The position numbers were made by a program, and so were the translations under genes. A stretch of 27,147 nucleotides of DNA, taken from a virus. The stretch is taken from the UHGV virus genome UHGV-1347488. The stretch is one strand, 5' to 3'. The stretch's first letter is position 1. Each line of letters starts with the position of its first letter. The notes under the pieces were generated by a model that ran no database searches, was not told the DNA's origin, and saw only the letters and a program-made list of their open reading frames with translations. Positions 18 through 25,729 of the stretch are shown here, piece after piece.

Positions 18-3000
18 TTACACTTCTATTACTTCTTTATCACACATAAGCAAACCATCCAGAAAGCTATTAATAGAACTGATTAACTCTGCATCCTGTG
101 ATGGATCGAGAGACTTCTTAAAGGTAGTGAGATTGCCGCTGATTTCTGATAGAGCACTCTCGGACTCCAAAATCCACGCATCATACTGCTTTTTGGCGTT
201 AGTCAGCATTGTATAATCGGCCTGATCCTGGTATCCGGTAGGATTCTTTTGCTCAATATCCGCAATTTGCTGTTCAATTTTCTCACGTTCTTCCAGATAA
301 CGGTTATAATCTGCCAACTGTTTTGTGGCGTTTTCCATCACTGTACCACGGCCACCAGACATAGTGCCGATATTCTGGTATCCTTCATAAATACTGCTCT
401 TATCAAGGTCAACACCCTCGTAAGAGCCATAATAGGATTCTGCGCCTAACGCTTTTAAAGCATCAGCACGAGACTGTTTTCCGGCAGTATCAGCTTTGAT
501 TTCTGCCAACTGAATGCTGCGTTCCAATTCTGCATTGGCATCTTTCAATTTCTGCAATTCTTCCTGTTCAATGAAAGACAGATGGTCTTTTGCTTCCAAT
601 TCATCAATGCGGCTATTGGTGGTTTTCAACTCATCATTTAAACTTTCAACCTCATTCTTTGCATCCTCATAAGCCTGTGCCGACTCCTCCGCTTTTTCTT
701 TCAGATTGTCGACATTGTGCGCCACATAATCATAAGCTTTGCCAATGGCCCAAATTCCGGCTGTAATAGCCGCTGTGATACCCATGTTAAGAGCCATATT
801 CAGCGCAACGGTTTCTAATTTCAATGCCATTGTTGCTGTCTTGCTCGCATTCAGTGAAGCAGTATAGCCCTTCATCGTAGCTTCGGCACCATTAAGGCCA
901 GAGAGATACGAACGCATATCGAAGTCATTTGTAAGCTGATTGATAGCTTTCTGATTTGCACACTGAGCTTTTACGAGGACATTGTAATTGCTGATGATAC
1001 TATCTGCATTGGCAATAGGCTGTACCACGTTCTTTGTAAATAGGCCGCCGAACTTTTCACCCTCGGCTGATGCCTGTCGCATTTCTTCCAGAGTCTTGCC
1101 TAAGAAGGTAATCTCCGAACCATTGTTATTGAATACCCCGATGGTCTTACCTCTTAAAGCACTTCCGGCTGTGATTGCTCCCATTGCGGTAGAGAGCACG
1201 CCCAGTTTGTCAATTACTTCTGACAGAACATTAAGGAATGCTGCACCGCCATCTGCTGCCCCTTTCAGGAACTCAGAATCTGCAAGCTGCATGGACAATT
1301 TCTCGTAGGCCGCAATCATGGAATTGATATGTGATTGAACTGTATCGGCATAGGCTTCAAATTTCTTTAATGCCTCATCACTAGAATTTTCAGAAATCTT
1401 TGTTAGCTTTTCAACCTTGTCCCAGTTAGATAGAACTATAGCTCCGGTGTTTGCCTGATATACGCCAAAAAGAGCCGAATTAATGGAGTTTCGCTCCACA
1501 TCATTTAATGTGTTGTATCGAGCTGCCAGTTCACGTAATACATCCGATAAATCACGATAGTCTGTCAGGTTTTCTCTTATCTTAATTCCAACTTTTCCGA
1601 GGGCCTTTTCAATATTGCTTAAATCGTCTCCAGATTCATAATCCACAAACTTTCCAACTTTAATTTGGCTATATCTAGCAACGATTGATTTAATGGCATT
1701 ACCTAACTGTTCGTCTCCAAGAGTAGGAGCAGTATCTTTCATGGCCGCAAGCATACCAAGTAATAAATCCACATTAATTCCGGCTTGCTTGGCGGAAGCT
1801 GCCGTTCTTGAAAGTGCTTCTGCAAGACCTCCCGCAGAGCTGGCCGAAGACATATCTACGTTTGACAAACGAGATAAAATGGACATAGTATCAGAAATAT
1901 CCATTTGATAGCCATTTAGAATTGCCATTAAATCTTCCGTAGCACTAGCTTCGTCCATCATACCAATTTTAGATAAGATCATGGAATCCTTAATCAAGGT
2001 ATTGGCTTCGCTGATACTCTTACCAGACCTTAACCAATCATCTGCTGCATTTGCCACAGATGTTGTTGTAGAACCTAAGTCCTGCGCCATCTGATTGTAT
2101 GTACCGATTAATGCCTTAGTCTGCTCTCTTGTTCCGCCAGTCGCAACCTGTAAGTTATACAAGGATGTATCAATATCCTTGGCGGTATTAACCATCTGTT
2201 TGAAAGTCTGGAAAGCCGCAGTCAGAGATACAACATTCGCAACAGCGGAATCAAAGGCGGATTTCATCTCCTGGACTGTCGCATTAGTGGTCAAGCCCAT
2301 CTGCTTTGCTTCACTCTGAATCTGCCTAAACTCGTTCTGCAATGCAGTAAACTTAACAGAATCAGCAGATTGCAAATCAGCTTTAATCTGTGCCAGACGT
2401 GATGAAAAGATTATTGCCGCATCGGTGTTCTTGTTCATCCAGGTATCGAGATTAGTTCCAAATAAAGACTTGTCTGCATTCAGCTTTGTATCTTTAGCAG
2501 CATTTTTCTGCTCAATAGACATCTGTTTGAACCGCTGCGTACAGGTATTAAGTGATTCTGTCAGCTGATTGTATAGCTTAATCTTGCCCTCCGGCTCATC
2601 AATGCTTCCAATCTGCTGTAGCTGCTGCCGCATGGTCTGGAATGCCTGCGCAACATCATCCGGCATATCAAACTTTGCACCTTTAAATTTGGACTCTAAA
2701 TAGTCGAGGTCAGCCGGAAGCTCACGGATATACTGATCCAATTTTTCAGCTGCATTGGAAGACCATTTCTTCGCAATCTCCGCATTGAAAGACTTAGCCT
2801 TTTCGATGGCCTGGTCATATTTTGCAATCATGGCATCCAGACTGCCCTTATCAGAGATATTTGAAAAATCAATGCTATCGACTAATGACTTGAAGGAGTT
2901 GTTGGTTGAATCACCGGATAAAAAAGATTTATAAGTGGATTTTAGACCTTCTAATTTTGACTGAAACTCTGCTGCTTTTGCAGATACCTCTGCAAACTCT

Positions 3001-4121
3001 TTGCCGGACTGGTCAATGACTTTACTGCCTGCATATACATACTGCCCCATATCATTCAGAGCAAAATTGTATTGCTGGATAATTCCTTTGCCCTTATCTA
3101 ACGTGGCACTAAATTTTGTAATTTCTTCATTACCATTTTCGTTGAACTGTAGCCTAATGTCTTTGTCAGTGATACCATCAAGCTGTGTAAAATACCCTTT
3201 GACCTGTGATGTCAGTTCTGAGATTGTCCCCTTACCGAAGGAAACATCAATATCCAATAGGGATTTCTTAATGTTCTGTGCTTCCGCTGATACATCACCG
3301 TTGATGGATTCCAATTGCGCTTTCAACTGGGTACGCATGACCGCCAAATCAGAATATAACTGGCTATACATATCATCTTCAAAGCCGATTTTATCCTTTA
3401 AATTAACCGGCTCCAACTTATCAATATCAGACTTATACAGCTTGATAGCATTCACAATTTCACGAAACTGCTGCGTAGGATCGGCAGTGCCAGAAAACAT
3501 ATCTTTAAATTTAGAAGACATTTCCTGATAAATACTATCTAACTGGATACCGCTTTTATTTGGATCGGTGATGAATTTGTCTGCGGATACCATCCGTAAA
3601 CTATTCCATTCTTTGCCAAGGTCTGATTTTACAATATCTGGGATTTTGATTCGATCAAGAGATTTGAAATAATTGAAGAAATTATCATAGATTCCAGTTC
3701 TGCTTTGGATTATCTGAGCATTCTTACTAATAACTTCGCCCATCTGAAAGATGTATTCAAGATACTTCGGATTTTCTTTTCCTGTTTGTAGCTCGCCAAT
3801 ACTCACGTTCTGGAGCATGTTGGTAAGGTTCTTAATTTGATTCTGTGCTTGCTTGTTCTTAATGTTGTACTGGTTGATGAGACTGTTTCCTAGTGCTTCA
3901 CCAATCTTCTTTCCAGAATCGGTAGCTGCTTTGGCCCCGGTCGTGCCGAGGTTCTTAATTGACTGTTGGATATTCTTATCCAGTTCGGCTTTCAATTTAA
4001 TCTTAGAGCCAGACGCTTCTATCCGCTTTTGTAGTTCTGCTATATCTTTTGCAATAGCCTTGACCGATTCCTTTAAATCGAGTCCGGCCGTTAGGCCAAT
4101 ATTAAAATCTGTATCTGCCAT
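18..4121 (-). CDS. Phage tail tape measure protein (TP901-family core region, C-terminal coiled coil)
   Basis: 1367-aa ORF with Ala/Gly/Ser-rich tape-measure core (…NLQVATGGTREQTKALIGTYNQMAQDLG…SRLSNVDMSSASSAGGLAEALSRTAASAKQAGINVDLLLGMLAAMKDT…), hydrophobic segment ALNMALNMGITAAITAGIWAIG and long coiled coils. ATG at 4121 with RBS GGAAAGGA 7 nt upstream. Confidence 0.9.
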   Translation of the reverse strand: MADTDFNIGLTAGLDLKESVKAIAKDIAELQKRIEASGSKIKLKAELDKNIQQSIKNLGTTGAKAATDSGKKIGEALGNSLINQYNIKNKQAQNQIKNLTNMLQNVSIGELQTGKENPKYLEYIFQMGEVISKNAQIIQSRTGIYDNFFNYFKSLDRIKIPDIVKSDLGKEWNSLRMVSADKFITDPNKSGIQLDSIYQEMSSKFKDMFSGTADPTQQFREIVNAIKLYKSDIDKLEPVNLKDKIGFEDDMYSQLYSDLAVMRTQLKAQLESINGDVSAEAQNIKKSLLDIDVSFGKGTISELTSQVKGYFTQLDGITDKDIRLQFNENGNEEITKFSATLDKGKGIIQQYNFALNDMGQYVYAGSKVIDQSGKEFAEVSAKAAEFQSKLEGLKSTYKSFLSGDSTNNSFKSLVDSIDFSNISDKGSLDAMIAKYDQAIEKAKSFNAEIAKKWSSNAAEKLDQYIRELPADLDYLESKFKGAKFDMPDDVAQAFQTMRQQLQQIGSIDEPEGKIKLYNQLTESLNTCTQRFKQMSIEQKNAAKDTKLNADKSLFGTNLDTWMNKNTDAAIIFSSRLAQIKADLQSADSVKFTALQNEFRQIQSEAKQMGLTTNATVQEMKSAFDSAVANVVSLTAAFQTFKQMVNTAKDIDTSLYNLQVATGGTREQTKALIGTYNQMAQDLGSTTTSVANAADDWLRSGKSISEANTLIKDSMILSKIGMMDEASATEDLMAILNGYQMDISDTMSILSRLSNVDMSSASSAGGLAEALSRTAASAKQAGINVDLLLGMLAAMKDTAPTLGDEQLGNAIKSIVARYSQIKVGKFVDYESGDDLSNIEKALGKVGIKIRENLTDYRDLSDVLRELAARYNTLNDVERNSINSALFGVYQANTGAIVLSNWDKVEKLTKISENSSDEALKKFEAYADTVQSHINSMIAAYEKLSMQLADSEFLKGAADGGAAFLNVLSEVIDKLGVLSTAMGAITAGSALRGKTIGVFNNNGSEITFLGKTLEEMRQASAEGEKFGGLFTKNVVQPIANADSIISNYNVLVKAQCANQKAINQLTNDFDMRSYLSGLNGAEATMKGYTASLNASKTATMALKLETVALNMALNMGITAAITAGIWAIGKAYDYVAHNVDNLKEKAEESAQAYEDAKNEVESLNDELKTTNSRIDELEAKDHLSFIEQEELQKLKDANAELERSIQLAEIKADTAGKQSRADALKALGAESYYGSYEGVDLDKSSIYEGYQNIGTMSGGRGTVMENATKQLADYNRYLEEREKIEQQIADIEQKNPTGYQDQADYTMLTNAKKQYDAWILESESALSEISGNLTTFKKSLDPSQDAELISSINSFLDGLLMCDKEVIEV

Positions 4122-4139
4122 TTAATCATCCTTTCCTTA

Positions 4140-4613
4140 TTAAAAGTAATTTATCTGCACATCTAATGGATTTTTTACCGACTGTCTATATGCTTCGATT
4201 GCCTTATCAACAAAATGCGTTGCTTCACGAAATCCGAAGTATGGCACATCCGCAAACTTGCCATGTGTCTGCCATCCCTCATTTAAGAGCAATGCCGTAT
4301 TAATAGACTTACCATCTAGGCCAGTATGCCATGCTCCATCACCGAAGCCGAGACGAACACTGACAAACATCTTTGTTCCTTTTACCTCTGTATACACTCT
4401 GCTGTCAGTTAATAGGGAATGCTGTAATGCAAAGGTTCTCTTATATAAAACAGGCATATAAGAAGCGTACACCACCCATAGTTGCTGAGAGATGCACGCT
4501 GCTAATATATCTGCATGGTGCCGAAGTTCCTGTTCAATCGTCTTGCCGTTGTCCAGTTTCATTTTGGATACATCCATACTTTTGAGGAGCTTCTTTAAGC
4601 TGTTTTTGTCCAT
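4140..4613 (-). CDS. Hypothetical protein immediately upstream of the tape measure gene (tail-assembly-chaperone position; no recognisable motif)
   Basis: 157-aa ORF, ATG with RBS AAGGGGAG 6 nt upstream; stop 18 nt before the TMP start. Lies in the -1 frame relative to the preceding ORF and overlaps it by 19 nt. Confidence 0.55.
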   Translation of the reverse strand: MDKNSLKKLLKSMDVSKMKLDNGKTIEQELRHHADILAACISQQLWVVYASYMPVLYKRTFALQHSLLTDSRVYTEVKGTKMFVSVRLGFGDGAWHTGLDGKSINTALLLNEGWQTHGKFADVPYFGFREATHFVDKAIEAYRQSVKNPLDVQINYF

Positions 4614-5140
4614 AGCTGCTCCCCTTCATGTGCCTTGTGCGGACCAAATAAAGCAAGATTGAGCGCATTTTTCTGAATTTCACTAAAAGTAGGATACTTT
4701 TCGCTGATCTTAGAAAGAGTTTCTATCAAATTATGAGAATTAGCAGCAAATGATATCTCAATACCCATTTTGCTTAACACCCAGTCAATATGTTCAAAAT
4801 CTTCTTTGGTGAGTGCACCCATAAGATTAAGAATAGGCATAGAATTAAATTTAGGAGATTCCGGTGCGCTCTTCCTTGAAGTTACTTTCTGCACCTTTCC
4901 ATCTGTGATATTTTTAAGAAGCTCCATTTGATGTAATGCCTCTGAATATTGCGCCATTGTAATCGAAGCATTCAAATTCCATTCATGGTATGAAACTTCT
5001 CCATTTACCATAGCCAAAATTGTTCGCAAATCCACAAGACTCAGCAATTTATCAAATTTATCTCCATCGGAATCTTGATTGTTTTCAGCCATCAATCTCA
5101 TTAAATCTGTGTAAGTATATTTTTTTTTTGTGTCTGCCAT
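4595..5140 (-). CDS. Hypothetical protein (possible tail assembly chaperone by position only)
   Basis: 181-aa ORF, ATG with RBS GGGGAGGA 9 nt upstream; 3' end overlaps the next ORF across an A-run (GACAAAAACAG). Confidence 0.55.
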   Translation of the reverse strand: MADTKKKYTYTDLMRLMAENNQDSDGDKFDKLLSLVDLRTILAMVNGEVSYHEWNLNASITMAQYSEALHQMELLKNITDGKVQKVTSRKSAPESPKFNSMPILNLMGALTKEDFEHIDWVLSKMGIEISFAANSHNLIETLSKISEKYPTFSEIQKNALNLALFGPHKAHEGEQLWTKTA

Positions 5141-5166
5141 ATTAGCAAGTCCTCCCCTTTTATGTT

Positions 5167-5334
5167 TTAATTAAATACAATGTTCTTATAATGTTTTCTA
5201 ATCTCGCTCAATGTGAGTTTAGACTTCGCCCTGCTGCCATCAGCGGAAACCAGATAAACGGTATTCCAAAGTGTAGCCAGGACGGTATACATCTTGTCTC
5301 CATCTGAGACGATTGTTCCATTTTTAAGATTCAT
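5167..5334 (-). CDS. Small hypothetical protein (55 aa), absent from the ORF track
   Basis: Translated by hand: MNLKNGTIVSDGDKMYTVLATLWNTVYLVSADGSRAKSKLTLSEIRKHYKNIVFN; ATG preceded by AAAGGAAAAA; fills the gap between the HTH gene and the 181-aa gene. Confidence 0.3.
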   Translation of the reverse strand: MNLKNGTIVSDGDKMYTVLATLWNTVYLVSADGSRAKSKLTLSEIRKHYKNIVFN

Positions 5335-5374
5335 ACAATTTTTCCTTTATTGGAATTGGTGGCGAAGTGCCGGA

Positions 5375-5563
5375 TTAATTTTTTGATTCGAAATATGCCG
5401 ATAATTTGGCAAAAGATTTTTTTCCTAAATTCATTTTGTTCCGCTTAAATCCAGACAGAACATCTTTATTGATACCAGTCACAGTACAAATATAGCTTGC
5501 CTTGACTGCCTGTAACTCATCATTTAATTTTGCTCGTAACTCTTCCTGGGTCAGTTTTATCAT
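5375..5563 (-). CDS. Small helix-turn-helix DNA-binding protein (Cro/XRE-like regulator)
   Basis: 62-aa ORF; HTH-like segment ICTVTGINKDVLSGFKRNK; paralogous to the 5742..5930 product. AAGGAG abuts the ATG (short spacer). Confidence 0.5.
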   Translation of the reverse strand: MIKLTQEELRAKLNDELQAVKASYICTVTGINKDVLSGFKRNKMNLGKKSFAKLSAYFESKN

Positions 5564-5717
5564 CTCCTTCTGTGTAAAATATCATAATTTTTTATGTTTA
5601 AAAAAATAAAAGTCGTAATCATACGCAATGCCCCGCCGCTGTTTGAGGACGGCGAGGTATCACATGGGGAAACAAAACGCATTACATCTAAACGCAACAC
5701 CTATTATTTATAATAAA

Positions 5718-5733
5718 ACACTTGCGCAAGTGT
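5718..5733. promoter_or_regulatory. Perfect 16-bp palindrome ACACTTGCGCAAGTGT (candidate operator, or stem of a minus-strand terminator)
   Basis: Read directly; sits 9 bp past the stop of the 5742..5930 HTH gene and about 155 bp upstream of the 5375..5563 HTH gene; followed on the minus strand by a T/A-rich tract. Confidence 0.4.
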
Positions 5734-5741
5734 AATATTAC

Positions 5742-5930
5742 CTATGGGATTATAACTTTTGATAAATACTCCTCAAGCCTGACTGCATCCTCTTCGCAGA
5801 GAAACAGTTTGCCAGTCTTAAAATTTGATAAAATGTACTGTGGAATTCCGGTCTTTTTTGAAATAGCTTTTGCAGCAAGACCATCATTCAGTACAGCTAT
5901 AAGATGATTTTTTAAATCAGTCTGATTCAT
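5742..5930 (-). CDS. Small helix-turn-helix DNA-binding protein (Cro/XRE-like regulator), paralog of 5375..5563
   Basis: 62-aa ORF; segment ISKKTGIPQYILSNFKTGK aligns with the other small HTH protein; ATG with RBS AAAGGAGAG. Confidence 0.55.
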   Translation of the reverse strand: MNQTDLKNHLIAVLNDGLAAKAISKKTGIPQYILSNFKTGKLFLCEEDAVRLEEYLSKVIIP

Positions 5931-5976
5931 GCTGCTCTCCTTTCCCGTATTTCACAATTATCTTTTAAAAAATTTT

Positions 5977-6001
5977 AGGAAGAGGAATCTCTGTCCTCTC
6001 C
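5977..6001 (-). terminator. Candidate intrinsic terminator downstream of the 999-aa gene
   Basis: Minus-strand imperfect hairpin GGGAGAGGACAGAGATTCCTCTTCC followed by TAAAATTTTTT. Confidence 0.3.
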
Positions 6002-6087
6002 CTATTCTATGTTGACGTTTTGTAATTTTTGCACTAAATAAGTCAATAATTACTGGCGTTTTTCTGTGCATATTTTACACTTCAAAA

Positions 6088-9087
6088 CTACGAAACTGAT
6101 GTTCGTTTCTTTCTGAGCGCATTTTCACGACTGCATGATTCAGAACAGGTTAACGCATTGCCCCACTTAATGTATGGCTTTTGACAGATGATACAATCGC
6201 AGACCTTCTTTTTACCATTATAACGGTAAAAGTACGGCAGCAGCTTCTTAGCCTTATATGGAATCTCGTAAGCAAGTGTTTTTTCTTCCGGCTGATATTC
6301 CAACTGAATTTCTATATAGTCTGCATTCTGCTCTGTACTGATAGCTCCTATTTTAGCCAATCGTGCAATGCCTTTCTTGGCAATCGTAACGTCACCTTCC
6401 AACATCTTATCAATGGCCCCATAAGTCAATGCAGATTTTTTGCCGGAATAAATCTTGATGTTTCCAAATCTCTTTGATAAAATCAATAGGACGAATAAAA
6501 GTTCTCGGTCGTTTTCGGCAGTCGATTTTTTATATGGCTGATTATCAATCCATCCTAATTCTTCCTTATAAATCTGCACCGATTTTTCATCAACTTTCAA
6601 AACGGCCTTTGTAGCACTGTCTGCTACCTTTTCCATCTTAATTACCTTTTCTGTGGTGTATCTGGCTCTCCGCCGCTTAACTTCACAGCCTTTATTCTTC
6701 CGAACTGTATCAGCAATTACATCCCCGAAGCAGTTCCAAAGGATATTTTTTCCTGACATGGCAGTTCCTTCATTGCGCTGCATATATTCATATTCCAAAA
6801 GATATTGTGTGGCTCTTCCCCTATCTGGAATAATCTGTAGAATTAATCTTTCGCACAACAGATAGAACACCTCGTATCGACTAATTTTTTCAGCGAAGCC
6901 ATCTGATTTTGTCTGATGTTCAAGTTCTTTCTGAATGTACTGTTCAAGTTGTTTGGCCCTGGCTTTTAAATCGAACATCAGCTTTTCCAACTGACCGTAT
7001 ACGGCATCTTTAACATTTATGGTCATAGACTGGTCAAACAAGATTGATGGGTCAAATTTTTTGCCGTCCTTATTATATGACTTGTTTCCAGTCTGCTTAT
7101 GGATATACTGGCAAATACGGTCACAGATGCTATCACTTGGTGCTGCACAGTTTTCTTTCTTCTTACCTTTTGCATAGATAAAGAAGTAAGGCGGCTTCTT
7201 TGCTTTCAGTTCCAGATACTTTGCTTCGTACTCTCCCAGAGACACATTTTTCTGGCTCTTCGGAAAATCAATAGTCAGATTGTTGTAGCAGCACATAACG
7301 GCATTGAAGTCATCGTCAATTTCCTTGCTGTTATAATTCTTGGTCATGACGTTGGAAATATCACCAATGTTTGAATTGTTCATGCTTGCCACCAGTGCCG
7401 TATAAATTGCATCCGGTGTAACTGGCGTTTTCTCCGCTGAAAAAGATGTATAATATAAGGTATGTTTATCATCGGGGACACAATCCATCATGGCCTGATT
7501 CGGGGTCAGAAGAATCTCATCCCCATCAACATCAAACTGTAAGACCCGGCATAACAGATCATGACCGCTTACTACGGTATCCAAATCATTAAACCATTCT
7601 TTGCATCTTTCAAGGTCAACACCTTTTACCAGATTGCGAATTCCATGCTCCATATACAGGTGAGGACTTCGCAGACAGTCAACCTTTTCATACGGCTTAT
7701 CATTGAAGAAACTGTTATATACATGATTACGTGGAATCAAACCTTTTGGATTCTCAATGCCACAGAACAACCACTCACAGAAGGCATATAAATCAGGGCA
7801 AATATAGCTATACAGTGAATCCGGCAGAATCAGCTTGCATCCTCGGGCATCGGTGCGTTCGGATTTAAACTTGTTCTGTAGTTGATACTGAACATATTTA
7901 TCTCTCAACATATTTTCTGGATCAGCTTCGACCGCTTCCGCTAAATCACTGTCACCCAAAAGCTTCACGATTTTATCTGGATTCTGTTTCAGGTCTGCCA
8001 GATAATCAATGGTCGGCTTGCATAACTCTTCCATCTTCTCATCAGTGAACTTTTGACTGTCTAAAGTCTGCAAAAACTGATAACTGGTTTTAGCGTAACC
8101 TTTCGGTTCTGTGTCCGCAAATTTATTGATTGCAATTCTCATGCCGTTTGCTTTGAATGCGGCCTTGTACTCTTCCCATGATTTATAGTAGGCGTGCATT
8201 TTTAACTGTGAAGCAGTCAGAATAACTTGAATGTCCTCTGCAATAACATCATGCTCATTTCCCCACGCATCCTTAATAATTGGACTCGGTTTTACTCCTT
8301 CTACGGATGGCTGTGCAAGAAACTTGCGGAAATCAAATGGGAAAATACAGCCTTTCATATGTGCGCATCTGATTTGTGCCGATGCAGGAAGGACACCAGG
8401 CAGAAACATTCCGGCTCCATCAGTTTGAGGAATCTTTATATGTTCCGTCCTTACCTCAATGCCAGTGATAGTTTCATCATCGTGGTCAATGCACTTAACC
8501 TCTTCATCCAGATAGGTTTCAAAGTCACCTACCACAAGGCACTTATCAATATTCAATTCGTAATTGGTGGGAATAAATGATGTTGATAGCGGTAGTCCCT
8601 TATATGCAAGATACTTACCAGTATTACAACCGCCATTAGAGTTAATGAGTTCGTTTGTCAGACCGCACATGAATTGTTTTTCATGCTGTCGGTAAAAATC
8701 CTCTTTGATTAGGATAATCTCACCACGCTTCATCTGATTTGTGGTTGAACTATAAAAGATGTAATGTGTGCCGTCAATGTCTACGCCATTCTGTAGAATC
8801 TGTTTCAGAATCGTATTCTGCTGTGCCACTTTTAGATAAATAATCTCGGTCAACACTGGCGTTCCATCCATAGAATCTGTAGTGTATCGTCCCATCTCGC
8901 TCTCAAAGAGTGCAATCTGATTGTCGGTGCGCTCTTCATCGTTTAGAGATAATGCCGATTTGTAAATCTGCCGGACACCTGTGAAAGATTCTATTAGATT
9001 GTCTCGCTGTTTTTTCAGATACAGCTTGGTGTTTGCTTTTGTGGATTCCTTGTATGCTTTGTGTGCGTTCCGCTCCTCATCGGTCAA
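6088..9087 (-). CDS. Large polymerase-like protein with DxDGD motif; candidate YonO-like single-subunit two-barrel RNA polymerase (C-terminal Cys cluster)
   Basis: 999-aa ORF containing FDVDGDEILLTP, which resembles the metal-binding NADFDGD loop of RNAP beta-prime, YonO and cellular RdRPs; C-terminal CDCIICQ…CSESC. Listed start is TTG with no clear RBS, so the true start is uncertain. Confidence 0.5.
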   Translation of the reverse strand: MTDEERNAHKAYKESTKANTKLYLKKQRDNLIESFTGVRQIYKSALSLNDEERTDNQIALFESEMGRYTTDSMDGTPVLTEIIYLKVAQQNTILKQILQNGVDIDGTHYIFYSSTTNQMKRGEIILIKEDFYRQHEKQFMCGLTNELINSNGGCNTGKYLAYKGLPLSTSFIPTNYELNIDKCLVVGDFETYLDEEVKCIDHDDETITGIEVRTEHIKIPQTDGAGMFLPGVLPASAQIRCAHMKGCIFPFDFRKFLAQPSVEGVKPSPIIKDAWGNEHDVIAEDIQVILTASQLKMHAYYKSWEEYKAAFKANGMRIAINKFADTEPKGYAKTSYQFLQTLDSQKFTDEKMEELCKPTIDYLADLKQNPDKIVKLLGDSDLAEAVEADPENMLRDKYVQYQLQNKFKSERTDARGCKLILPDSLYSYICPDLYAFCEWLFCGIENPKGLIPRNHVYNSFFNDKPYEKVDCLRSPHLYMEHGIRNLVKGVDLERCKEWFNDLDTVVSGHDLLCRVLQFDVDGDEILLTPNQAMMDCVPDDKHTLYYTSFSAEKTPVTPDAIYTALVASMNNSNIGDISNVMTKNYNSKEIDDDFNAVMCCYNNLTIDFPKSQKNVSLGEYEAKYLELKAKKPPYFFIYAKGKKKENCAAPSDSICDRICQYIHKQTGNKSYNKDGKKFDPSILFDQSMTINVKDAVYGQLEKLMFDLKARAKQLEQYIQKELEHQTKSDGFAEKISRYEVFYLLCERLILQIIPDRGRATQYLLEYEYMQRNEGTAMSGKNILWNCFGDVIADTVRKNKGCEVKRRRARYTTEKVIKMEKVADSATKAVLKVDEKSVQIYKEELGWIDNQPYKKSTAENDRELLFVLLILSKRFGNIKIYSGKKSALTYGAIDKMLEGDVTIAKKGIARLAKIGAISTEQNADYIEIQLEYQPEEKTLAYEIPYKAKKLLPYFYRYNGKKKVCDCIICQKPYIKWGNALTCSESCSRENALRKKRTSVS

Positions 9088-9325
9088 AGCATCAAAGGTA
9101 CTAAGTTTGTAAATTCTGATCCGTCTTGGTTTAAACTCCTTGTTAATAGTAACACGCTCCTTATCTATATAAATTTATTTATACTTTCTCCAAACATGTT
9201 GCAATTTGGAACTGATGAAATTAACTTTTCAAATTTAATTTTGCATGTATATTGTATTTTTCTTAGTTACATCTTGATTCGTCAATGTTTTTATGTTAAC
9301 ATAACAAAAAAATGGAGGTGAAGAC

Positions 9326-9532
9326 ATGTCCAAACTTTCCACTAAAATGCCCGATGGACGTATGATTTATGGTGCAGCCGCTCAACAGCATATCATCAAA
9401 GAAAACGGCGGCTGGGATGAACATCATCGGAAATTCGCTGAACGCGTAATCGACACAGTTATGAAAGAATTTACAAAAGAAAATTCTAAACGAAAATTTT
9501 CTGTTGTCGATGGGAAACGCAATGTCGGTTAA
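9326..9532 (+). CDS. Small hypothetical protein (68 aa), the only convincing plus-strand gene in the left half
   Basis: ATG preceded by GGAGGTG at 7 nt; immediately followed by a hairpin and T-tract. Confidence 0.6.
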   Translation: MSKLSTKMPDGRMIYGAAAQQHIIKENGGWDEHHRKFAERVIDTVMKEFTKENSKRKFSVVDGKRNVG

Positions 9533-9536
9533 TAGC

Positions 9537-9929
9537 TCATGTACGGCACCTCTTCACGGAGGTGCTTTTTAATTTATCCTGATTCTGTAATTCCTTATAA
9601 CCAGCATTAATGCTTTTTTCGCCTGACAATACTTCCTTTTTTAATTTTTCATTATCCGAATCAAGAATTTTTTTGCCCTTTGAATATGTATCAGTAGATA
9701 CACCCGCTGTTTGAGCTAATTTTTTGGTTGTATTAACGGGTGAAAACGCTTTTTCAGAATTCTGAAAACCCGTTATTTTGTATTCATCAGATTTTTTATC
9801 ACCACCACCAAGAGATTGATTTTCTTTCGCCTGTTTCTCATAAATTGGTCTATATTTTTCAGCAACAGCGATTCTCTGGACGGGAGATAGATTACGTCTG
9901 CCAAGCTGGATATCAAGCATCCACTCCAT
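9537..9929 (-). CDS. ParB/KorB-like HTH DNA-binding protein (putative)
   Basis: 130-aa ORF; pattern LGRRNLSPVQRIAVAEKY…EKQAKENQ…GGGDKKS…TAGVSTDT resembles the HTH region of ParB-family proteins; ATG with RBS AAAGAGGAAG; in-frame TAA 37 codons upstream. Confidence 0.45.
   Translation of the reverse strand: MEWMLDIQLGRRNLSPVQRIAVAEKYRPIYEKQAKENQSLGGGDKKSDEYKITGFQNSEKAFSPVNTTKKLAQTAGVSTDTYSKGKKILDSDNEKLKKEVLSGEKSINAGYKELQNQDKLKSTSVKRCRT
9546..9570 (+). terminator. Intrinsic terminator (GCACCTC / loop TTCACG / GAGGTGC + TTTTT)
   Basis: Perfect 7-bp GC-rich stem plus T5 directly after the stop of the 68-aa gene; it overlaps the last codons of the convergent 9537..9929 gene. Confidence 0.6.
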
Positions 9930-9995
9930 AACTTCCTCTTTTGTTTCGTAGGCGAGAGTGCCAACTACATAGTCGATGTTGTGGAATAAACCACT

Positions 9996-10013
9996 TTTGG
10001 TAAATTTACCAAA
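9996..10013. promoter_or_regulatory. Perfect 18-bp palindrome TTTGGTAAATTTACCAAA (candidate operator or centromere-like site)
   Basis: About 70 bp upstream of the ParB-HTH-like gene; related copies at 10177..10190 (TTGGTAAATTTACT), 13021..13030 and 13053..13070 (TTTACC-N6-GGTAAA). Confidence 0.4.
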
Positions 10014-10877: not shown

Positions 10878-12098
10878 TTACGCCAACTGTTTTCCTCTAG
10901 CGGAATAAACTTCTGCCCCGGTCAGACCATCAACACACTGTTCAGTGATAAGCACCCTCTTTGCACCCTTCAAGTCTGGCACAGAAAACATAACATCTTG
11001 CATGGCTGACTCAATGATGCTGCGCAGACCTCTTGCACCAGATTTTTGCTTAATTGCTTTTTCCGCAATTTTCCTTAAAGCTTCGTCTGAAAACTCCAGA
11101 TTGACCTTATCCAACTTCATCAGTTCGGCATACTGTTTGGTCAGTGCATTCTTCGGTTCTGTAAGGATACGAAGCAAAGCATCTTCATCAAGTGGCATTA
11201 AGGTTGCCAACACCGGAATACGCCCCATTAACTCAGGAATTAGTCCGTAGTGGACTAAATCGGCATCAGTTATTTTGCTGAAATCGAAACTATCTGAAGG
11301 TGATGTGTTCACTGAATTGAACCCGATGGAATTACCAGAAGATTCCTGACCTACGATTTTCTCAATCCCATCAAATGCCCCACCAACGATAAATAGAATG
11401 TTGGAAGTATCCATACGCACTGTAGCCGCATTTGGGTGTTTGCGTCCGCCGCTTAGCGGTACATCAGCTATGGTTCCCTCCAGAATCTTTAAGAGTGCCT
11501 GTTGTACTCCTTCACCGGAAACATCACGAGTGATAGAAGTGTTCTCGCCTTTTCTGGAAAGCTTATCAATCTCGTCAACGTAAACGATCCCCCGCTGTGC
11601 CAGGTCAAGATCGTGATTGGCGGCATCATATAAGCGGAGTAGGACATTCTCGACATCCTCGCCAACATAACCAGATTCGGTCAGACAAGTGGCATCAGAC
11701 ATAGCAAAGGGAACGCCTAAGAATTTTGCCAGTGATTGAACCAGATATGTCTTACCGCTTCCTGTTGGCCCTACAAGCATGATGTTTGACTTCTGGATTT
11801 CTACACAGGATTTTGATTTCTGTGAGATGCGCTTGTAATGATTGTAAACCGCCACAGACAGAATCTTCTTTGCATCGTTCTGGCCGATGACATACTCGTC
11901 AAGATGCTTCTTAATCTGACTAGGAGTTGCCAACTTGAAGCTGTTTGATTTTGCGGATTCTTCCTTGTCCTGAAATGCTTCTTCTGCTTGCATAGAACAC
12001 TCACGGCAGAGACAGCCATATTTACCCTTGATGAGATAGTCAACCTGAGACTCGTCCTTGCCGCACATAAAACAGTAGTTAATGCGTTTTGTTGCCAT
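10878..12098 (-). CDS. clpX: ATP-dependent Clp protease ATP-binding subunit ClpX (phage-borne)
   Basis: N-terminal C4 zinc-binding domain (CFMCGK…CLCRECS), Walker [17 protein letters not shown] motif, Walker B VYVDEIDK, sensor and arginine-finger region (SGARGLR); ATG with RBS AAAGGAGAG. Confidence 0.9.
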
Positions 12099-20072: not shown

Positions 20073-21179
20073 CTACTTACTGATTCTTCTGGCTTTCAGT
20101 TGCTCTAACGCTGACAGGCCGCTACTAGTCGGCTTATGCTCTGGTTCCTTCTTGACCGCAAACACACTGGATGTTCTGGCGGTGCGCACCTGTGTAAGAG
20201 CCTTCAAAGAGTTCTGCACGCTCTCAGCTTCTTTTTCTACGGATTCTGCTAACGCATCAATCCGGCTGTACGGCATCACCAGGCCGCTAAGGATCACCAC
20301 ATTTTCACCGGAATCTGAAACATATCCGTGATATTCGGTCGGTGCTGTACCTACGGCTTTCCGGAGTTCCGCAATATCAATCTTGCTCTCTTTTGCTGAT
20401 ACCGCTTCGGAAATACCCATAATGCTGACCGTCTTATCTTCCCGCTGTGCAAAAATATTGCTCTCACGGGTCAGAATATCCACGATATAACCCGTTGTGC
20501 CATTGGCTGCATTAGTGGCAACGATTACAGAAAATGACGGACAATGTAAGCAGCTTTCAATCTCTGCCAAATCCATATTGCCGTCCTGGGATTTATTGTT
20601 AATGCAAAGCACTGCTGTCATCAGTCTGGCGAATGCTCGGTTGATCTGCAACTTCTCACCGGAGTTATTGTCCAGCATGAAAATGCTTCCCAAACTCGGC
20701 TTTAATTCCTCGATTTCCTCAAAGGTCTGTCTGGCATTATCTCTGATTTTTAAGGATTCCGTATCTGCCGGAATAACCACAACCAGACACACTTTGTATC
20801 CCATCTCTAACAGGATTCTTGCCAACATTGGCCCCATTGCAGAGCCGGTTCCACCGCCCATTGAAAATGCGATAAATACTGTGCTGCCCTCGATTATGTA
20901 CTGCTGCAATTCATCCAGAATACTATCAACATTTTCCGCAAGTGCATCTAAGCTGCGCTCCCTGTTGCCTGCTGCCCCATTACAGTTTTTCACATGGATT
21001 TTGTGGGACAGATTAACCGCCGATAAATCCTCGGTACTGGTGTTGATACCAACAAAGGATACGCTGTCTTTGCTGCCATCCAGTTCCATAACCTTCTTTT
21101 CAACCTCAGAAATGACCTGGCATCCGCACTGACCGCATCCGATAAAGGTAGCTTTTAATCTCGTATTTAATTTTTTCAT
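20073..21179 (-). CDS. Tubulin/FtsZ-superfamily GTPase, TubZ/PhuZ-like (putative partition or positioning cytoskeletal protein)
   Basis: T1-loop-like GCGQCGCQ near the N-terminus and tubulin signature-like FSMGGGTGSAMGP; internal ATG (MKKLNT…) with RBS AGAGGAG 7 nt upstream, chosen over the track's 21206 start; begins 4 nt after the stop of the upstream small HTH gene. Confidence 0.7.
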   Translation of the reverse strand: MKKLNTRLKATFIGCGQCGCQVISEVEKKVMELDGSKDSVSFVGINTSTEDLSAVNLSHKIHVKNCNGAAGNRERSLDALAENVDSILDELQQYIIEGSTVFIAFSMGGGTGSAMGPMLARILLEMGYKVCLVVVIPADTESLKIRDNARQTFEEIEELKPSLGSIFMLDNNSGEKLQINRAFARLMTAVLCINNKSQDGNMDLAEIESCLHCPSFSVIVATNAANGTTGYIVDILTRESNIFAQREDKTVSIMGISEAVSAKESKIDIAELRKAVGTAPTEYHGYVSDSGENVVILSGLVMPYSRIDALAESVEKEAESVQNSLKALTQVRTARTSSVFAVKKEPEHKPTSSGLSALEQLKARRISK

Positions 21180-21183
21180 AGAC

Positions 21184-21444
21184 TTACTCCTCTTGTTCCA
21201 TCTCATCCATCCATTGAATTCCTGTGGAAGTAATATAGTAGGTTTTGGCGTTTAACTGGTTCATACCATATTTGATGTATCCCAGATTAATCAGCTCCTT
21301 TAGATGCTTATAGATAACCTTGTAAGAGTATTTGATACCAATCTCTGCAAGACCCTCTTCAATCATCTTCTGAGTAGCCGCAACTAACTTGCTTCTTGCT
21401 TCCGCATGGAATAGGACGTTGAGAATTTCGTAATTTGTACGCAA
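21184..21444 (-). CDS. Small winged-HTH protein upstream of the tubulin-like gene (TubR-like by position and size)
   Basis: 86-aa ORF with TTG start and AGGAAGG RBS; helix-wing segment YKVIYKHLKELINLGYIKYG…NAKTYYITSTG; arrangement resembles tubR-tubZ operons. Confidence 0.45.
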   Translation of the reverse strand: MRTNYEILNVLFHAEARSKLVAATQKMIEEGLAEIGIKYSYKVIYKHLKELINLGYIKYGMNQLNAKTYYITSTGIQWMDEMEQEE

Positions 21445-21970: not shown

Positions 21971-23083
21971 ATGCTAGGAAAAAAAATTATTTTAAATGAT
22001 GCTATCCGTGATTCTATCACTAGATTTAGGAAAAGCAAAATGAAAGAACACCCCGAATTAACCGCAGATGGCATTTCAGAAAAAATAGGAAGATCTAAGT
22101 CTTGGTTATCTCAAGTAGNNNNNNNNNNNNNNNNNNNNNNNNNNNNNNNNNNNNNNNNNNNNNNNNNNNNNNNNNGAGCAGATTTCAATTTTAAATATGA
22201 ATATGATGCAGTAGCCAAACGTGTAGATAATGAAATCATGTTAATAAATGCATTCATTAAACATGGTATTGCAGATGAAAACGGTAATATACTTGATTTC
22301 CATGAGAGTCTACGATTAGAGCAATGTAGAGGTTTTCTTCGACAAGCCGGAAAAATGACAGATTGTTATATTAAGGAATATTTACAAAACCCAATTCAGG
22401 AAATTGAAAAAAAAATTAAAACTGAGATTCATAATGTTTTAATTGAAATTGTTCGATGGATAAACAGAGCTTTTGATGACACTGCTGATTTATTTTCTGA
22501 TGAAGTGTCAACTAAAAATTTATATTGTTTACTGGAAACGGCATATACTATTTTTAATGCTCATTGTGATTATTTCGGCCTAAATCCTTTAACCGCCACA
22601 GATACTGATTTAAAAACCTTAAAGAACAAATTAAATACGGATTGTTTTATAAAACCACGAACGGTATTAAAACCTCTTGATGATTATACAGAATCAGAGT
22701 TCAAGGAAGTGGTTAAAAATTTTTCTTCCGAAGAATATATGCAATGGAAAAACAAGCGCATTTATATTGGTGATGATCCATTTCCTATGACTGTTGGTTT
22801 TATTGATAGTAAAAAAGAACGGCATACCCCACTACACTATATAACTTATCCAGATTTAAATAAAGCTACCGGATTATCTGAAAAGGAATATCTCTATATC
22901 ATTAAGCAAGTTTATTTACAATTTGATATTTTTTATAAAGATTGTCAATCGTTAAGAGATGATTTGGAATTTTATAAAGATGAAAATGATCAGTATTACG
23001 ATGAAATTCAAGAATTAAATGAACGTATAAATGAACTCACCAATAAACTTAATACTGAGTCAGAGAAGCCACCAGAGGAATAA
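21971..23083 (+). CDS. HTH-domain protein with large C-terminal domain of unknown function (370 aa; reading frame interrupted by an N run)
   Basis: RBS GAGGTGAG; N-terminal XRE-like segment (…LTADGISEKIGRSKSWLSQV…); C-terminal coiled-coil-like region; very AT-rich codon usage. Confidence 0.65.
   Translation: MLGKKIILNDAIRDSITRFRKSKMKEHPELTADGISEKIGRSKSWLSQVXXXXXXXXXXXXXXXXXXXXADFNFKYEYDAVAKRVDNEIMLINAFIKHGIADENGNILDFHESLRLEQCRGFLRQAGKMTDCYIKEYLQNPIQEIEKKIKTEIHNVLIEIVRWINRAFDDTADLFSDEVSTKNLYCLLETAYTIFNAHCDYFGLNPLTATDTDLKTLKNKLNTDCFIKPRTVLKPLDDYTESEFKEVVKNFSSEEYMQWKNKRIYIGDDPFPMTVGFIDSKKERHTPLHYITYPDLNKATGLSEKEYLYIIKQVYLQFDIFYKDCQSLRDDLEFYKDENDQYYDEIQELNERINELTNKLNTESEKPPEE
22119..22175. other. 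Run of 57 N (assembly gap or masked segment) inside the 21971..23083 ORF
   Basis: Literal n characters; length is a multiple of 3, so the frame is preserved. Confidence 0.95.
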
Positions 23084-23188: not shown

Positions 23189-24055
23189 TTATTTCAAATA
23201 CAATGGATGGCTATTATCGTCCGCTTCCTTCTCAAAGTCACCATTGAATTTATATTGACCCTGGTGATCGGGTTTACTATTATAAACTTCATAGCCACCA
23301 TTTTCAAAATCTGTGGATAAATACACATCCAATTTGGGACTTTTAAAAACCTGTCTTTTAGGAGATTGTCCATCTCTCTTTTTAGCTTTTCGCTTATTTA
23401 AAGCGGTAAGTTTAGAATCGTATGTATACTTATTTCGTTCTGCAACTTCCATTCCAATTTTATGAAGGGTTGCTATTTTATCATCAATTGAATTAGAACG
23501 TAATATTTCAGATCTCCATTCGTTATATCCATTACACAATACAGATGCTGGAAACTTATTATTAAATGATGGGACAGAAATTTGTATTAATTCATCTTGT
23601 TGAATCCATCTTTTAATATTTGAATCAACTTCCTGATCAAAATTTCCTATAAAAAATATTTTATCATTCAATTGTTTTTGTTGTAACTCTCTATGCCGTC
23701 TATCTTTAATGTATGGGATTACAACAATATTATCTTCTGATATACTTAGAATATATTTTATTTTTCCAACAAAAGCCTTCGTAAAACCGAGATTATTCAA
23801 AGCAATGTCTTCAGCTTCTGACACAAGACCTGCATCATATTTATCTACCTTATGAGTTTTTAAAATTGAATGATTTACCTCTCTGAACCTGGAAGATCTG
23901 TTATATGACTTTGTGGAAGTTGCAAAAGGTTCAAACATAACTAATTTTGCATTGAAAAAATTTTCAACAACTAATAAAAAATCATTCAAGTATTTTTGCT
24001 GTTCAATGCTTGTTTGATAAAATTTTTCATCGATAAGTATTTTATATGTTGGCAT
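23189..24055 (-). CDS. Unknown-function partner protein of the ABC ATPase (288 aa; candidate effector of a two-gene defence-like module)
   Basis: ATG (MPTYKILIDEKF…) with RBS CAGGAGAG; start lies 1 nt after the ATPase stop codon; basic C-terminal region (KRKAKKRDGQSPKRQ); no HNH-type Cys/His pattern. Confidence 0.7.
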   Translation of the reverse strand: MPTYKILIDEKFYQTSIEQQKYLNDFLLVVENFFNAKLVMFEPFATSTKSYNRSSRFREVNHSILKTHKVDKYDAGLVSEAEDIALNNLGFTKAFVGKIKYILSISEDNIVVIPYIKDRRHRELQQKQLNDKIFFIGNFDQEVDSNIKRWIQQDELIQISVPSFNNKFPASVLCNGYNEWRSEILRSNSIDDKIATLHKIGMEVAERNKYTYDSKLTALNKRKAKKRDGQSPKRQVFKSPKLDVYLSTDFENGGYEVYNSKPDHQGQYKFNGDFEKEADDNSHPLYLK

Positions 24056-24056
24056 A

Positions 24057-25487
24057 TCAACTCTCCTGTTTCTGCAAATTTCTATATCCAACATCTATGA
24101 TTTTAGCTGTTTCATTTGAAAATTGATAAAAGAAATTTTCATTTTCACATAATGCCCCGTCAACTTCATCAATCACTATAGGTGTTATAAAAGACATACC
24201 TAATTCATTCTGATCTACAAAATAGATTTGAATTTTATCACGTACCTCTACATCCTCCATATAGCGTCTAACAATTCTATTTACAAAATGATCACTATGA
24301 GTTTCAATAACAACAGATTTATCATGTGTGGAGAGGGATAATAAAAAATCTGCCATTCGCATTTGCATTTTAGGATGCAGGTGAATTTCTGGCTGTTCCA
24401 AAATCAAGGTTTGATTCGAAGACATAATAATTCCTTCGGCTAAAATTGGCAATGACTGACTAATTCCAAATCCAACATCAACCAAATTATGTTTATTTAT
24501 TCTTACTTTTACTAAATCTTGTTGTCTATTATCAAGGAATAGCGTACCTAATTCTAAATATTGCATCCATGAACCAATTAAATCAATAAATTTATTTGAT
24601 TCACATACTGTCTGTGACGGCACATAATTATCTTCCGATTCAGGAGCCATAACACCTACCACAGTATTTTTTTGTTTATTCTTCAATAACAGAGGGGTAT
24701 CTTCACCGGATACACCAACATCAACAACCTTTTTGTCTGCGATATAACGTCTCATAGGATTTTCTCTCAATGGAGCAATATATTGTAATTGAATATACTG
24801 AGATGGAAGAATACTAAAAATTGAAGTTAAAGTTGGAATAAACAATTTTGTAGAAGGATTCATACGTTCTTCGTAAATACTATTTAAAGTCATATTACGA
24901 AAATAACAGATAGCATTGTTAATATTAAAATCTCCTAAATTCCCAGCAACATCTGGGATTTGTGTTCCGCGAACAGTATATGTCTTTTTCCCATTTCTGC
25001 ACAATTCAATTCGTGAATTGATTGAGCCAGTTTTTAATTCTACTTCAATATTAACATCAATGGCATGTAATTTATTTGCATATAAAGAAGCGCCACTATT
25101 ATCAATAGAAACACAATAATTGATGATGAATTTTTCGACATCGTTTCTATAATATAATCTATTCAAATCACGAAACTGAACGTTATCTTTTGAAGCGGTT
25201 TCTTTTGAACGTTTAAGTTCAAAAGTATTGCTAATCGTAAAGAAATTTTCTGAATGTTGATCACACAAAATCTCAGAAAATGTTCCATTGTCTATATATT
25301 TACCGTTAAATAACATTTGGTCGGATGTATTAGTATCTTCAAAAGTTTGCTTTAACATCAGCAAGCTTTTTAAAATAGAACTTTTACCGCTGCTATTTAC
25401 ACCGCACAATACGGTCAGTGGCGCAATCTCTATATCGGTCTTATCTTTAAAGCACTTATAATTTTCCAAACTTATAGATTTCAGCAT
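24057..25487 (-). CDS. AAA15/AAA21-type ABC ATPase (OLD/AriA/PtuA/AbiLi-like)
   Basis: N-terminal I.SI.L.NYKCF with Walker A GVNSSGKS; Q-loop-like QYIAPLRE; signature-like GFGISQSLPILAEG; Walker B LILEQPEIHLHP; H-loop ETHSDH. ATG (MLKSISL…) preceded by GGAGGT at 6 nt. Confidence 0.8.
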   Translation of the reverse strand: MLKSISLENYKCFKDKTDIEIAPLTVLCGVNSSGKSSILKSLLMLKQTFEDTNTSDQMLFNGKYIDNGTFSEILCDQHSENFFTISNTFELKRSKETASKDNVQFRDLNRLYYRNDVEKFIINYCVSIDNSGASLYANKLHAIDVNIEVELKTGSINSRIELCRNGKKTYTVRGTQIPDVAGNLGDFNINNAICYFRNMTLNSIYEERMNPSTKLFIPTLTSIFSILPSQYIQLQYIAPLRENPMRRYIADKKVVDVGVSGEDTPLLLKNKQKNTVVGVMAPESEDNYVPSQTVCESNKFIDLIGSWMQYLELGTLFLDNRQQDLVKVRINKHNLVDVGFGISQSLPILAEGIIMSSNQTLILEQPEIHLHPKMQMRMADFLLSLSTHDKSVVIETHSDHFVNRIVRRYMEDVEVRDKIQIYFVDQNELGMSFITPIVIDEVDGALCENENFFYQFSNETAKIIDVGYRNLQKQES

Positions 25488-25729
25488 TCCCATACCTCCA
25501 TAATCTCCTTTCATTTTACCAAAATTTACCAGTTACTACAATGAGAACGTGTGTATATAGATTCGATATTTTAAAATATTTTTTTATGAAAGAAGCTGCC
25601 GGAATATACCAACGGCTCCCGCATTATTCCTTTCCAATCTTCCACTTAGCAAGTTCTTCCCCCAGGACCCAGCTCAATTCTTTGTACTGCTCCGGTGTGA
25701 GGGTCGTGCCGCATTTTTCTTCCACATTC

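Follow-up and report, generated by a model that had tools for sequence, protein, structure and literature searches.

Two-barrel RNA polymerases are defined by eight invariant residues, namely the three aspartates of a DxDxD triad, one further aspartate, three basic residues, and one proline; in QDE-1 these are D709, R738, K743, R962, P964, D1007, D1009, and D1011 (Ruprich-Robert & Thuriaux 2010, PMC2919709). YonO-like proteins have been known in Firmicute prophages since 2003-2010, and YonO itself, encoded by the Bacillus phage SPbeta, was characterised in 2017 as a strict DNA-dependent and highly processive RNA polymerase (Forrest et al. 2017, PMC5467207). In that study, mutation of the Asp triad (3D>3N) abolished RNA synthesis, YonO was needed for 37 late genes transcribed as one operon, and the question of how enzymes of this type find their promoters was explicitly left unresolved.

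Here we describe a gene in the UHGV virus genome UHGV-1347488 that very probably encodes a DNA-dependent RNA polymerase of the YonO family, single-subunit and two-barrel, which a temperate tailed phage of gut Lachnospiraceae uses to transcribe its late operon from a conserved element. The window, by which we mean the whole 27,147-nt stretch that was analysed, is AT-rich (GC 29-46%) and carries nearly all of its genes on the minus strand. On this strand the open reading frame (ORF) listing places a 999-aa ORF with a TTG start at 6088..9087, which contains LQFDVDGDEILLTP and has a Cys cluster at its end. From these features the original prediction had proposed a YonO-type single-subunit RNA polymerase, a proposal that the homology searches uphold. 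With its start codon corrected as described below, the gene extends over 6088..9147 (1019 codons plus a TAG stop), and all residue numbers used here count from the corrected start.

Homology to YonO

In a BLASTP comparison, residues 8-821 of the window protein aligned with residues 10-799 of YonO, nearly its full length, at 31% identity (E=5e-101). The alignment pairs LQFDVDGDEILL with YonO LQFDNDGDKALI and sets DVDGD opposite the catalytic DNDGD of YonO. A tblastn search against annotated phages returned yonO of SPbeta/SPBc2 and its relatives (E=1e-90), some of which are annotated as 'DNA-directed RNA polymerase YonO', and the protein also matched phrog_8308 (E=7e-148), for which the listed function is unknown. 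The single 1019-aa ORF agrees with this type of enzyme, which carries both barrels in one polypeptide and is without the SBHM/flap insert and other domains of the multisubunit enzymes.

The only Pfam match above the gathering cutoff was to the RNA-dependent RNA polymerase (RdRP) family, PF05183 (54.5 bits, cutoff 23.8), and no RNA polymerase beta/beta-prime family was among the matches. The window protein differs in this from YonO, which has no Pfam match at E values up to 10; the Lachnospiraceae clade lies nearer to the Pfam RdRP profile than does the founding member of the family (L001 5749-8265 compared with window 6091-9147). A relative 57% identical to the window protein bears the UniRef name 'RNA dependent RNA polymerase'. 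Pfam RdRP is a sequence family, and its name does not establish an RNA template.

Active site and predicted structure

The window protein has counterparts of all eight residues of the two-barrel active site: D243, R260, and K265 (QIRCAHMKG), R493 and P495 (RSPH), and D539, D541, and D543. None of the eight varies in an alignment of 50 diverse family members (28-58% identity) or in 66 close relatives, and their spacing agrees with QDE-1, with R-x4-K, R-x-P, and an Arg-to-first-Asp distance of 46 residues (45 in QDE-1). The motifs of the first, beta-like barrel, D243-G-x-G ... Q-I-R260-x4-K265-G, lie at 8350..8421 on the minus strand and are equivalent to QDE-1 D709, R738, and K743; here D243, G244, G246, R260, K265, and G266 are invariant in the 50 sequences. 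The R493-S-P495-H motif (7660..7671, minus strand), in which R493, P495, and H496 are invariant, is the equivalent of Rpb1 R446/P448 and QDE-1 R962/P964 (PMC2919709). The catalytic metal-binding loop FDVDGDEILLTP, with D539, D541, and D543, is found at 7501..7536 on the minus strand. Because F538, D539, D541, G542, and D543 are invariant in the 66 close relatives and the D-x-DGD residues in the 50 diverse ones, the DVDGD motif is, as judged from its conservation, no chance match. The original prediction had likened this motif to the catalytic loop of YonO and of cellular RdRPs, and both likenesses hold, in the alignment with YonO and in the set and spacing of residues shared with QDE-1.

An AlphaFold2 model built on the 66-sequence alignment reached a predicted local distance difference test (pLDDT) value of 76 and a predicted template modelling (pTM) score of 0.65. 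The region of the first barrel, residues 203-271, is modelled as six beta strands (pLDDT 70-87) and holds D243 and the conserved basic residues R260 and K265, supplying the further barrel for which the original prediction had proposed to look. Residues 440-560, which include the DVDGD loop, are modelled with few strands at a pLDDT of ~50. The barrel predicted around this loop is supported not by this low-confidence part of the model but by the relationship to YonO and by Pfam, where the segment from D539 (residues 539-609) falls on RdRP profile positions 435-511.

A Foldseek search of the Protein Data Bank (PDB) placed the whole model with Arabidopsis/maize RDR2 and Neurospora/Thielavia QDE-1 as the only significant matches (E 9.6e-10 to 2.7e-4, probability 1.0; best values 9.6e-10 for RDR2 and 2.6e-6 for QDE-1). 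The closest folds are thus those of RdRPs and not beta/beta-prime. Among viral models the top matches were phage proteins annotated as RdRP (E=1.8e-19, TM 0.52). Family sequence profiles (A1, A4) did not reach QDE-1 or RDR2 among PDB sequences, and the link to these two enzymes therefore rests on the Pfam model and Foldseek. A phmmer search of the PDB with the single protein gave a chance match only, and neither the PDB nor the searchable literature yielded a structure of YonO. QDE-1 and RDR2 (PDB 2J7N, 7RQS) resemble the window protein in being single chains with two barrels, and QDE-1 has the same set of eight invariant residues. Unlike the window protein, to which they are 10-13% identical, they copy RNA in silencing pathways and lack a zinc ribbon or winged-helix module of its kind at the C-terminus. 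Overall, a two-barrel polymerase fold is supported, and at the level of sequence the protein has a complete two-barrel active site together with a zinc ribbon.

The C-terminal zinc ribbon and winged-helix insert

The Cys cluster that the original prediction had described as zinc-ribbon-like comprises C985-x2-C988 ... C1001-x3-C1005 (CIICQKPYIKWGNALTCSESC; 6133..6195, minus strand) and is followed by a basic tail. Its Cys residues are invariant or nearly so, YonO ends in a matching CCICGKAF...YCQSC with a basic tail, and CxxC...CxxC with a K/R-rich tail closes nearly all family representatives. On this distribution the zinc ribbon is a trait of the whole family.

In the window protein the polymerase body is separated from the ribbon by a 163-aa insert (residues 822-984; 6196..6684, minus strand) that YonO lacks, the two proteins being 1019 and 839 aa long, respectively. 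The insert is confidently modelled as a winged helix, and R929 is invariant in a KKGIxRL motif. No match was returned by a word-indexed search for homologs of the last 201 aa even though identical proteins exist, a limitation of the index, and phmmer against 1.84 billion representative proteins was used instead. This gave only 31 clusters, all of them long-form polymerases or fragments of such polymerases except P0128. The possibility that the winged-helix module also occurs as a free-standing factor was rejected, every short match being a polymerase fragment. P0128 (347 aa) consists of zinc-ribbon repeats closely resembling the C-terminal ribbon of the polymerase (CVVCGKPFEKWGKKITCSEQCSRE), in four matched stretches.

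Relatives of the polymerase are encoded on 166 stretches of species-representative genomes. In these genomes the long form occurs at 14 loci, all in Lachnospiraceae (Robinsoniella, Dorea, Faecalimonas, Blautia, Sporofaciens, and others), and short forms occur in Paenibacillus, Brevibacillus, Oscillospiraceae, and other Lachnospiraceae. A further 410 IMG/VR contigs encode relatives, almost all of the short form. The short-form polymerases, among them those of Paenibacillus, Brevibacillus, and Oscillospiraceae and of the Clostridium phages c-st and D-1873 and the Psychrobacillus phage Perkons, share 28-35% identity, the invariant residues, and the zinc ribbon with the window protein. They differ from it in that the match ends at ~818 of the query, so that they are without the winged-helix insert, and in having no counterpart of the downstream element described below.

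A winged helix followed by a zinc ribbon is the domain order of TFE/TFIIE-alpha. The likeness to archaeal TFE and eukaryotic TFIIE-alpha is an architectural analogy with no sequence similarity, in which homology is not demonstrated, and the module of the window protein differs in being fused to the polymerase itself. The fold match of this module, considered as residues 822-1005, is also generic, as the winged helices of Fur, LexA, ORC, and DnaB score equally well. The insert most likely adds DNA contacts at initiation; more speculatively, it may contribute to promoter binding or opening.

Translation start of the polymerase gene

An in-frame extension upstream of the TTG reaches back to a TAA stop at 9177-9175 and contains an AAGGAG at 9162-9157. 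No ATG, GTG, or TTG occurs between this stop and the TTG at 9087. Homologs are mostly 1028-1042 aa long, and their N-termini (...FKPRRIRIYKLSTFDA/TFTDEER) match the extension, ...INKEFKPRRIRIYKLSTFDAL, which is kept for example as MILINQVFKPNRIRIYKLSTFDALTDEER in P0002; by this comparison the ORF call is 20 codons short. With the extension included, the alignment to YonO begins at query residue 8, and the segment that a TTG start would remove is modelled as a strand plus helices at a pLDDT of 74-91. We therefore rejected the TTG start (9087), since conserved protein sequence runs on upstream of it.

The probable start is an ATT at 9147-9145, separated by a 9-nt spacer from the Shine-Dalgarno sequence AAGGAG (both within 9145..9162, minus strand). 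In a relative with a 77% identical polymerase (L002), ATT AAC stands 8 nt past AAGGGAG, whereas the called GTG start shares nucleotides with the Shine-Dalgarno sequence of that gene. The protein is most likely ~1019 aa long, with translation starting at the ATT at 9147. The original prediction had pointed out the extension and its AAGGAG without choosing between the starts; the extension is real, and the question is settled in its favour. ATT is a weak start codon and could limit expression. Placed behind a strong Shine-Dalgarno sequence, it would keep levels of the enzyme low.

Gene order and a conserved non-coding element downstream of the polymerase

The polymerase gene is upstream of, and co-directional with, the late structural genes, which occupy 18..5140 on the minus strand and encode a 181-aa protein, a virion structural protein (phrog_7299), and the tape measure protein (tape-measure PHROGs). 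An ortholog in L004 of the gene at 4140..4613 matches Pfam YomN, a family of SPbeta late genes. Upstream of the polymerase are genes for ParB-like, ClpX-like, primase-polymerase-like, cold-shock, and tubulin (TubZ/PhuZ-like) proteins. The order tubulin, cold-shock domain protein, ClpX-like protein, polymerase, 62-65-aa protein, YomN-like protein, and tape measure recurs in relatives with 53-77% polymerase identity. This layout parallels that of SPbeta, where yonO also precedes a same-strand late structural operon with a YomN-family gene and a tape measure gene, and it agrees with the phage context assumed in the original prediction. The two loci differ in host, Lachnospiraceae here and Bacillus in the case of YonO, and in the gene that follows the polymerase, a small helix-turn-helix (HTH)-like gene in the window and the HU-like yonN in SPbeta.

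A conserved non-coding element, AAAACGTCAACATAGAATAGGGAGAGG, lies at 5995..6021 on the minus strand, ~70 nt past the polymerase stop codon and behind a terminator-like hairpin. Its parts are an A-tract, CGTCAA, an AT-rich TAGAATA, and the purine run GGGAGAGG. All long-form loci of the closer sub-clade have AAAAyCGTCAAy-N-TAGGGAGAGG at 66-76 nt past the polymerase stop, and the deeper sub-clade (35-39% identity) has AAAATCG-N-GATTTAGTATAGGGAGAG or ...TATAAAAGAGAGG at 89-95 nt, so that the offset of the element is fixed in loci whose polymerases are 35-77% identical. Allowing up to 3 mismatches, the 27-kb window has a single copy, and one copy is also found in each related locus. A 9-mer scan yielded no family-wide motif, and when the motif was sought in all fetched loci it was confined to the long-form clade, together with a 2-mismatch 16-mer in SPbeta-type phages. 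The Shine-Dalgarno sequence of a conserved gene for a small HTH-like protein follows ~55-65 nt downstream of the element. This gene, the first past the element (5742..5930, minus strand), encodes a 62-aa protein with orthologs in L002, L004, L005, and L006 and no Pfam family, and it keeps its place in the long-form loci examined; the protein might act together with the polymerase or regulate it.

The element contains a -10-like hexamer (TAGAAT/TATAAT/TAGTAT). A scan of 4500-10000 for sigma-70 sites (at least 9/12 matches) gave none at the element and no -35 at usable spacing, and the element lacks the combination of -35 and -10 at 16-18 nt of a sigma-70-type promoter. Readings of the CGTCAA and GAAT boxes as an ECF-sigma or sigma-H promoter were dropped by eye, as correctly spaced partner boxes are lacking. 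By eye, TATAGGGAGA is also like the start region of a T7-type promoter; this was given no weight, since T7-type promoters are read by an unrelated enzyme.

RNA structure around the element was assessed by folding each sequence singly, since RNAalifold detected no structure in a MAFFT alignment whose stems were out of register. The hairpin past the polymerase stop (6021..6079, minus strand) is weak in the window (z=-2.2) and strong in relatives, with z <= -3 in 13 of the 18 long-form loci. Because its stems vary in sequence from locus to locus and a T-tract comes after it in the deeper sub-clade, it looks like a terminator, probably that of the transcription unit of the polymerase. A second terminator-like site, a hairpin with a T-run at 5966..6004 (minus strand), has the purine core of the element as its 5' arm. 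This hairpin is strong only in the window, L002, and L004 (3/18 loci) and weak or absent in most others, and therefore structure does not explain the conservation of the core; the idea that the core is conserved merely as a terminator stem was rejected.

A related sequence is found in SPbeta, where CGTCAATAATTAGTTG, with 2 mismatches to the 16-mer of the clade, is found on the late strand within the yonN-yonK spacer, 177 nt past yonN and 84 nt upstream of the primer with which P_YonO was mapped (reverse-complement 3545 in L007, SPBc2; 8968 in L001). A match of this grade arises in 15 of 2000 shuffles. Of the primers for P_YonO, the forward one was mapped and the reverse one had no site at up to 2 mismatches; later SPbeta papers add no promoter detail. 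The candidate promoter of the window, ~70 nt past the polymerase stop, differs in position from the SPbeta start site, which is beyond yonN in the yonN-yonK spacer. From its conservation and position, we consider the element a candidate for a dedicated late promoter between the early unit and the late operon.

Proposed mechanism and alternative explanations

By homology and gene order, host RNA polymerase would transcribe the polymerase gene as the last gene of an early/middle unit ending at the hairpin. In the phage enzyme, the first barrel would provide D243, R260, and K265, and the second R493/P495 and the Mg-binding triad D539/D541/D543. The enzyme would start at the conserved element ~70 nt downstream of its own gene, with the winged-helix insert adding DNA contacts at initiation, and would transcribe the late operon for two small HTH-like proteins, the virion proteins, and the tape measure and beyond, in parallel with the action of YonO from P_YonO in SPbeta. 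DNA-dependent transcription of the late operon is what we infer for this enzyme.

An RNA-dependent enzyme acting on phage or host RNA would accord with the Pfam family matched, with the nearest solved structures, RDR2 and QDE-1, both RNA-dependent, and with the UniRef name of the 57%-identical relative. These database names stem from the Pfam label and not from experiment, YonO, which alone among the close relatives has been characterised, strongly prefers DNA templates (PMC5467207), and the gene resides in a double-stranded DNA tailed phage with a late-gene layout parallel to that of SPbeta; we regard an RNA template as highly unlikely. Hardly more probable is a virion-packaged polymerase that is injected to transcribe early rather than late genes, as in crAss-like phages, N4, and the Thermus phage P23-45. 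The gene is only ~2 kb upstream of the virion genes and tape measure, and in P23-45 a two-barrel polymerase is reported to be fused to the tape measure (bioRxiv 10.1101/2022.12.01.518664). Here the hairpin, the element, and two small genes stand between the polymerase and the virion genes with no fusion, the same-strand genes downstream of the element are all structural, and YonO, its characterised homolog, is synthesised after induction and late genes depend on it.

A more serious alternative accepts the polymerase and assigns the element another role, either as a promoter at which host RNA polymerase starts with a sigma factor other than sigma-A or one encoded by the phage, as an operator for the small HTH-like protein, or as an RNA leader. 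This has a substantial chance of being correct, if less than an even one. It would account for the -10-like hexamer, for the conserved HTH-like gene that follows, for the pairing of the purine core into a hairpin in the window, L002, and L004, and for the absence of the motif from other YonO-like clades. Against such roles stand the missing -35, with no site listed there in the sigma-70 scan and none at usable spacing, and the retention of the core in most loci, where the hairpin is absent. A dedicated late promoter fits an element that is single copy, holds a fixed site between a terminator-like hairpin and the late genes, and has a partial match in the P_YonO region of SPbeta.

If the element is a late promoter read by the phage enzyme, the fused winged-helix and zinc-ribbon module might itself read AAAAyCGTCAA-N7-TAGGGAGAGG directly and help to open the element, making the polymerase self-sufficient, which we put forward as a tentative and rather doubtful idea. 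If true, the module would be a built-in analogue of TFE/TFIIE or sigma, and one polypeptide would combine promoter recognition, melting, and elongation. It would also answer, for the long-form clade, whether YonO-like polymerases need initiation factors.

Other features of the window

A weak sigma-70-like site (TTGACG, 18 nt, AAAAAT) is present at 9256..9285 on the minus strand, in a 180-nt gap upstream of the polymerase gene, and may be the promoter from which host polymerase transcribes that gene; a divergent 68-aa ORF (9326..9532, plus strand) adjoins it. Farther upstream on the minus strand are the genes for the ParB-like protein (9537..9929), the ClpX-like AAA+ ATPase, which has a ClpX zinc finger (10878..12098), and the TubZ/PhuZ-like tubulin (20073..21206; Pfam Tubulin, 1.5e-21). 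In several relatives, too, tubulin and cold-shock genes precede the polymerase. Downstream of the element, a paralog of the 62-aa HTH-like protein, likewise with no Pfam family, is encoded at 5375..5563 (minus strand).

The tape measure protein (18..4121, minus strand) is 1367 aa long and corresponds without gaps, at 78% identity, to the first 1355 residues of the 2564-aa tape measure protein of the 77%-related phage; past residue 1355 it diverges for 12 residues and then stops. A large serine recombinase gene lies 54 nt past the tape measure gene on the opposite strand, and every contig ends inside the recombinase gene (L003 19124-20074; L168-L170). L004 and L005 also have an integrase or excisionase after the tape measure. 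The end of the tape measure gene may mark a prophage junction or the insertion of a mobile element inside the late operon.

At 23189..25514 on the minus strand, a 485-aa ATPase matches PADLOC NsnB (E=4e-65; Pfam AAA_15/AAA_21), and the adjoining 301-aa protein matches NsnC (E=1e-9), making this NsnB/NsnC-like pair a candidate prophage-borne anti-phage defence pair. A scaffold gap of 57 N (22119..22175) falls inside the only long plus-strand ORF (21971..23083).

Significance

The core finding is that the gene belongs to a known family and varies in its architecture; close relatives of the protein are already in databases as RdRP. No description of the winged-helix long form, its restriction to a clade of Lachnospiraceae prophages, the candidate promoter, or the ATT start was found in the searchable literature. 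The family is abundant in gut Lachnospiraceae prophages, and the database label 'RNA dependent RNA polymerase' probably misstates the template of its members.

No smaller relatives of cellular RNA polymerase are known than the YonO-type enzymes, which have been discussed as models for the single-chain ancestor of the cellular enzyme. The gene described here is no new kind of enzyme, and its value lies in a well-defined test system, a fused winged-helix polymerase together with a short, conserved, single-copy element at the position expected of a late promoter. A compact orthogonal polymerase-promoter pair of this sort would be useful in synthetic biology. For the family itself, promoter recognition by a minimal two-barrel polymerase becomes directly testable with one protein and one 30-bp DNA.

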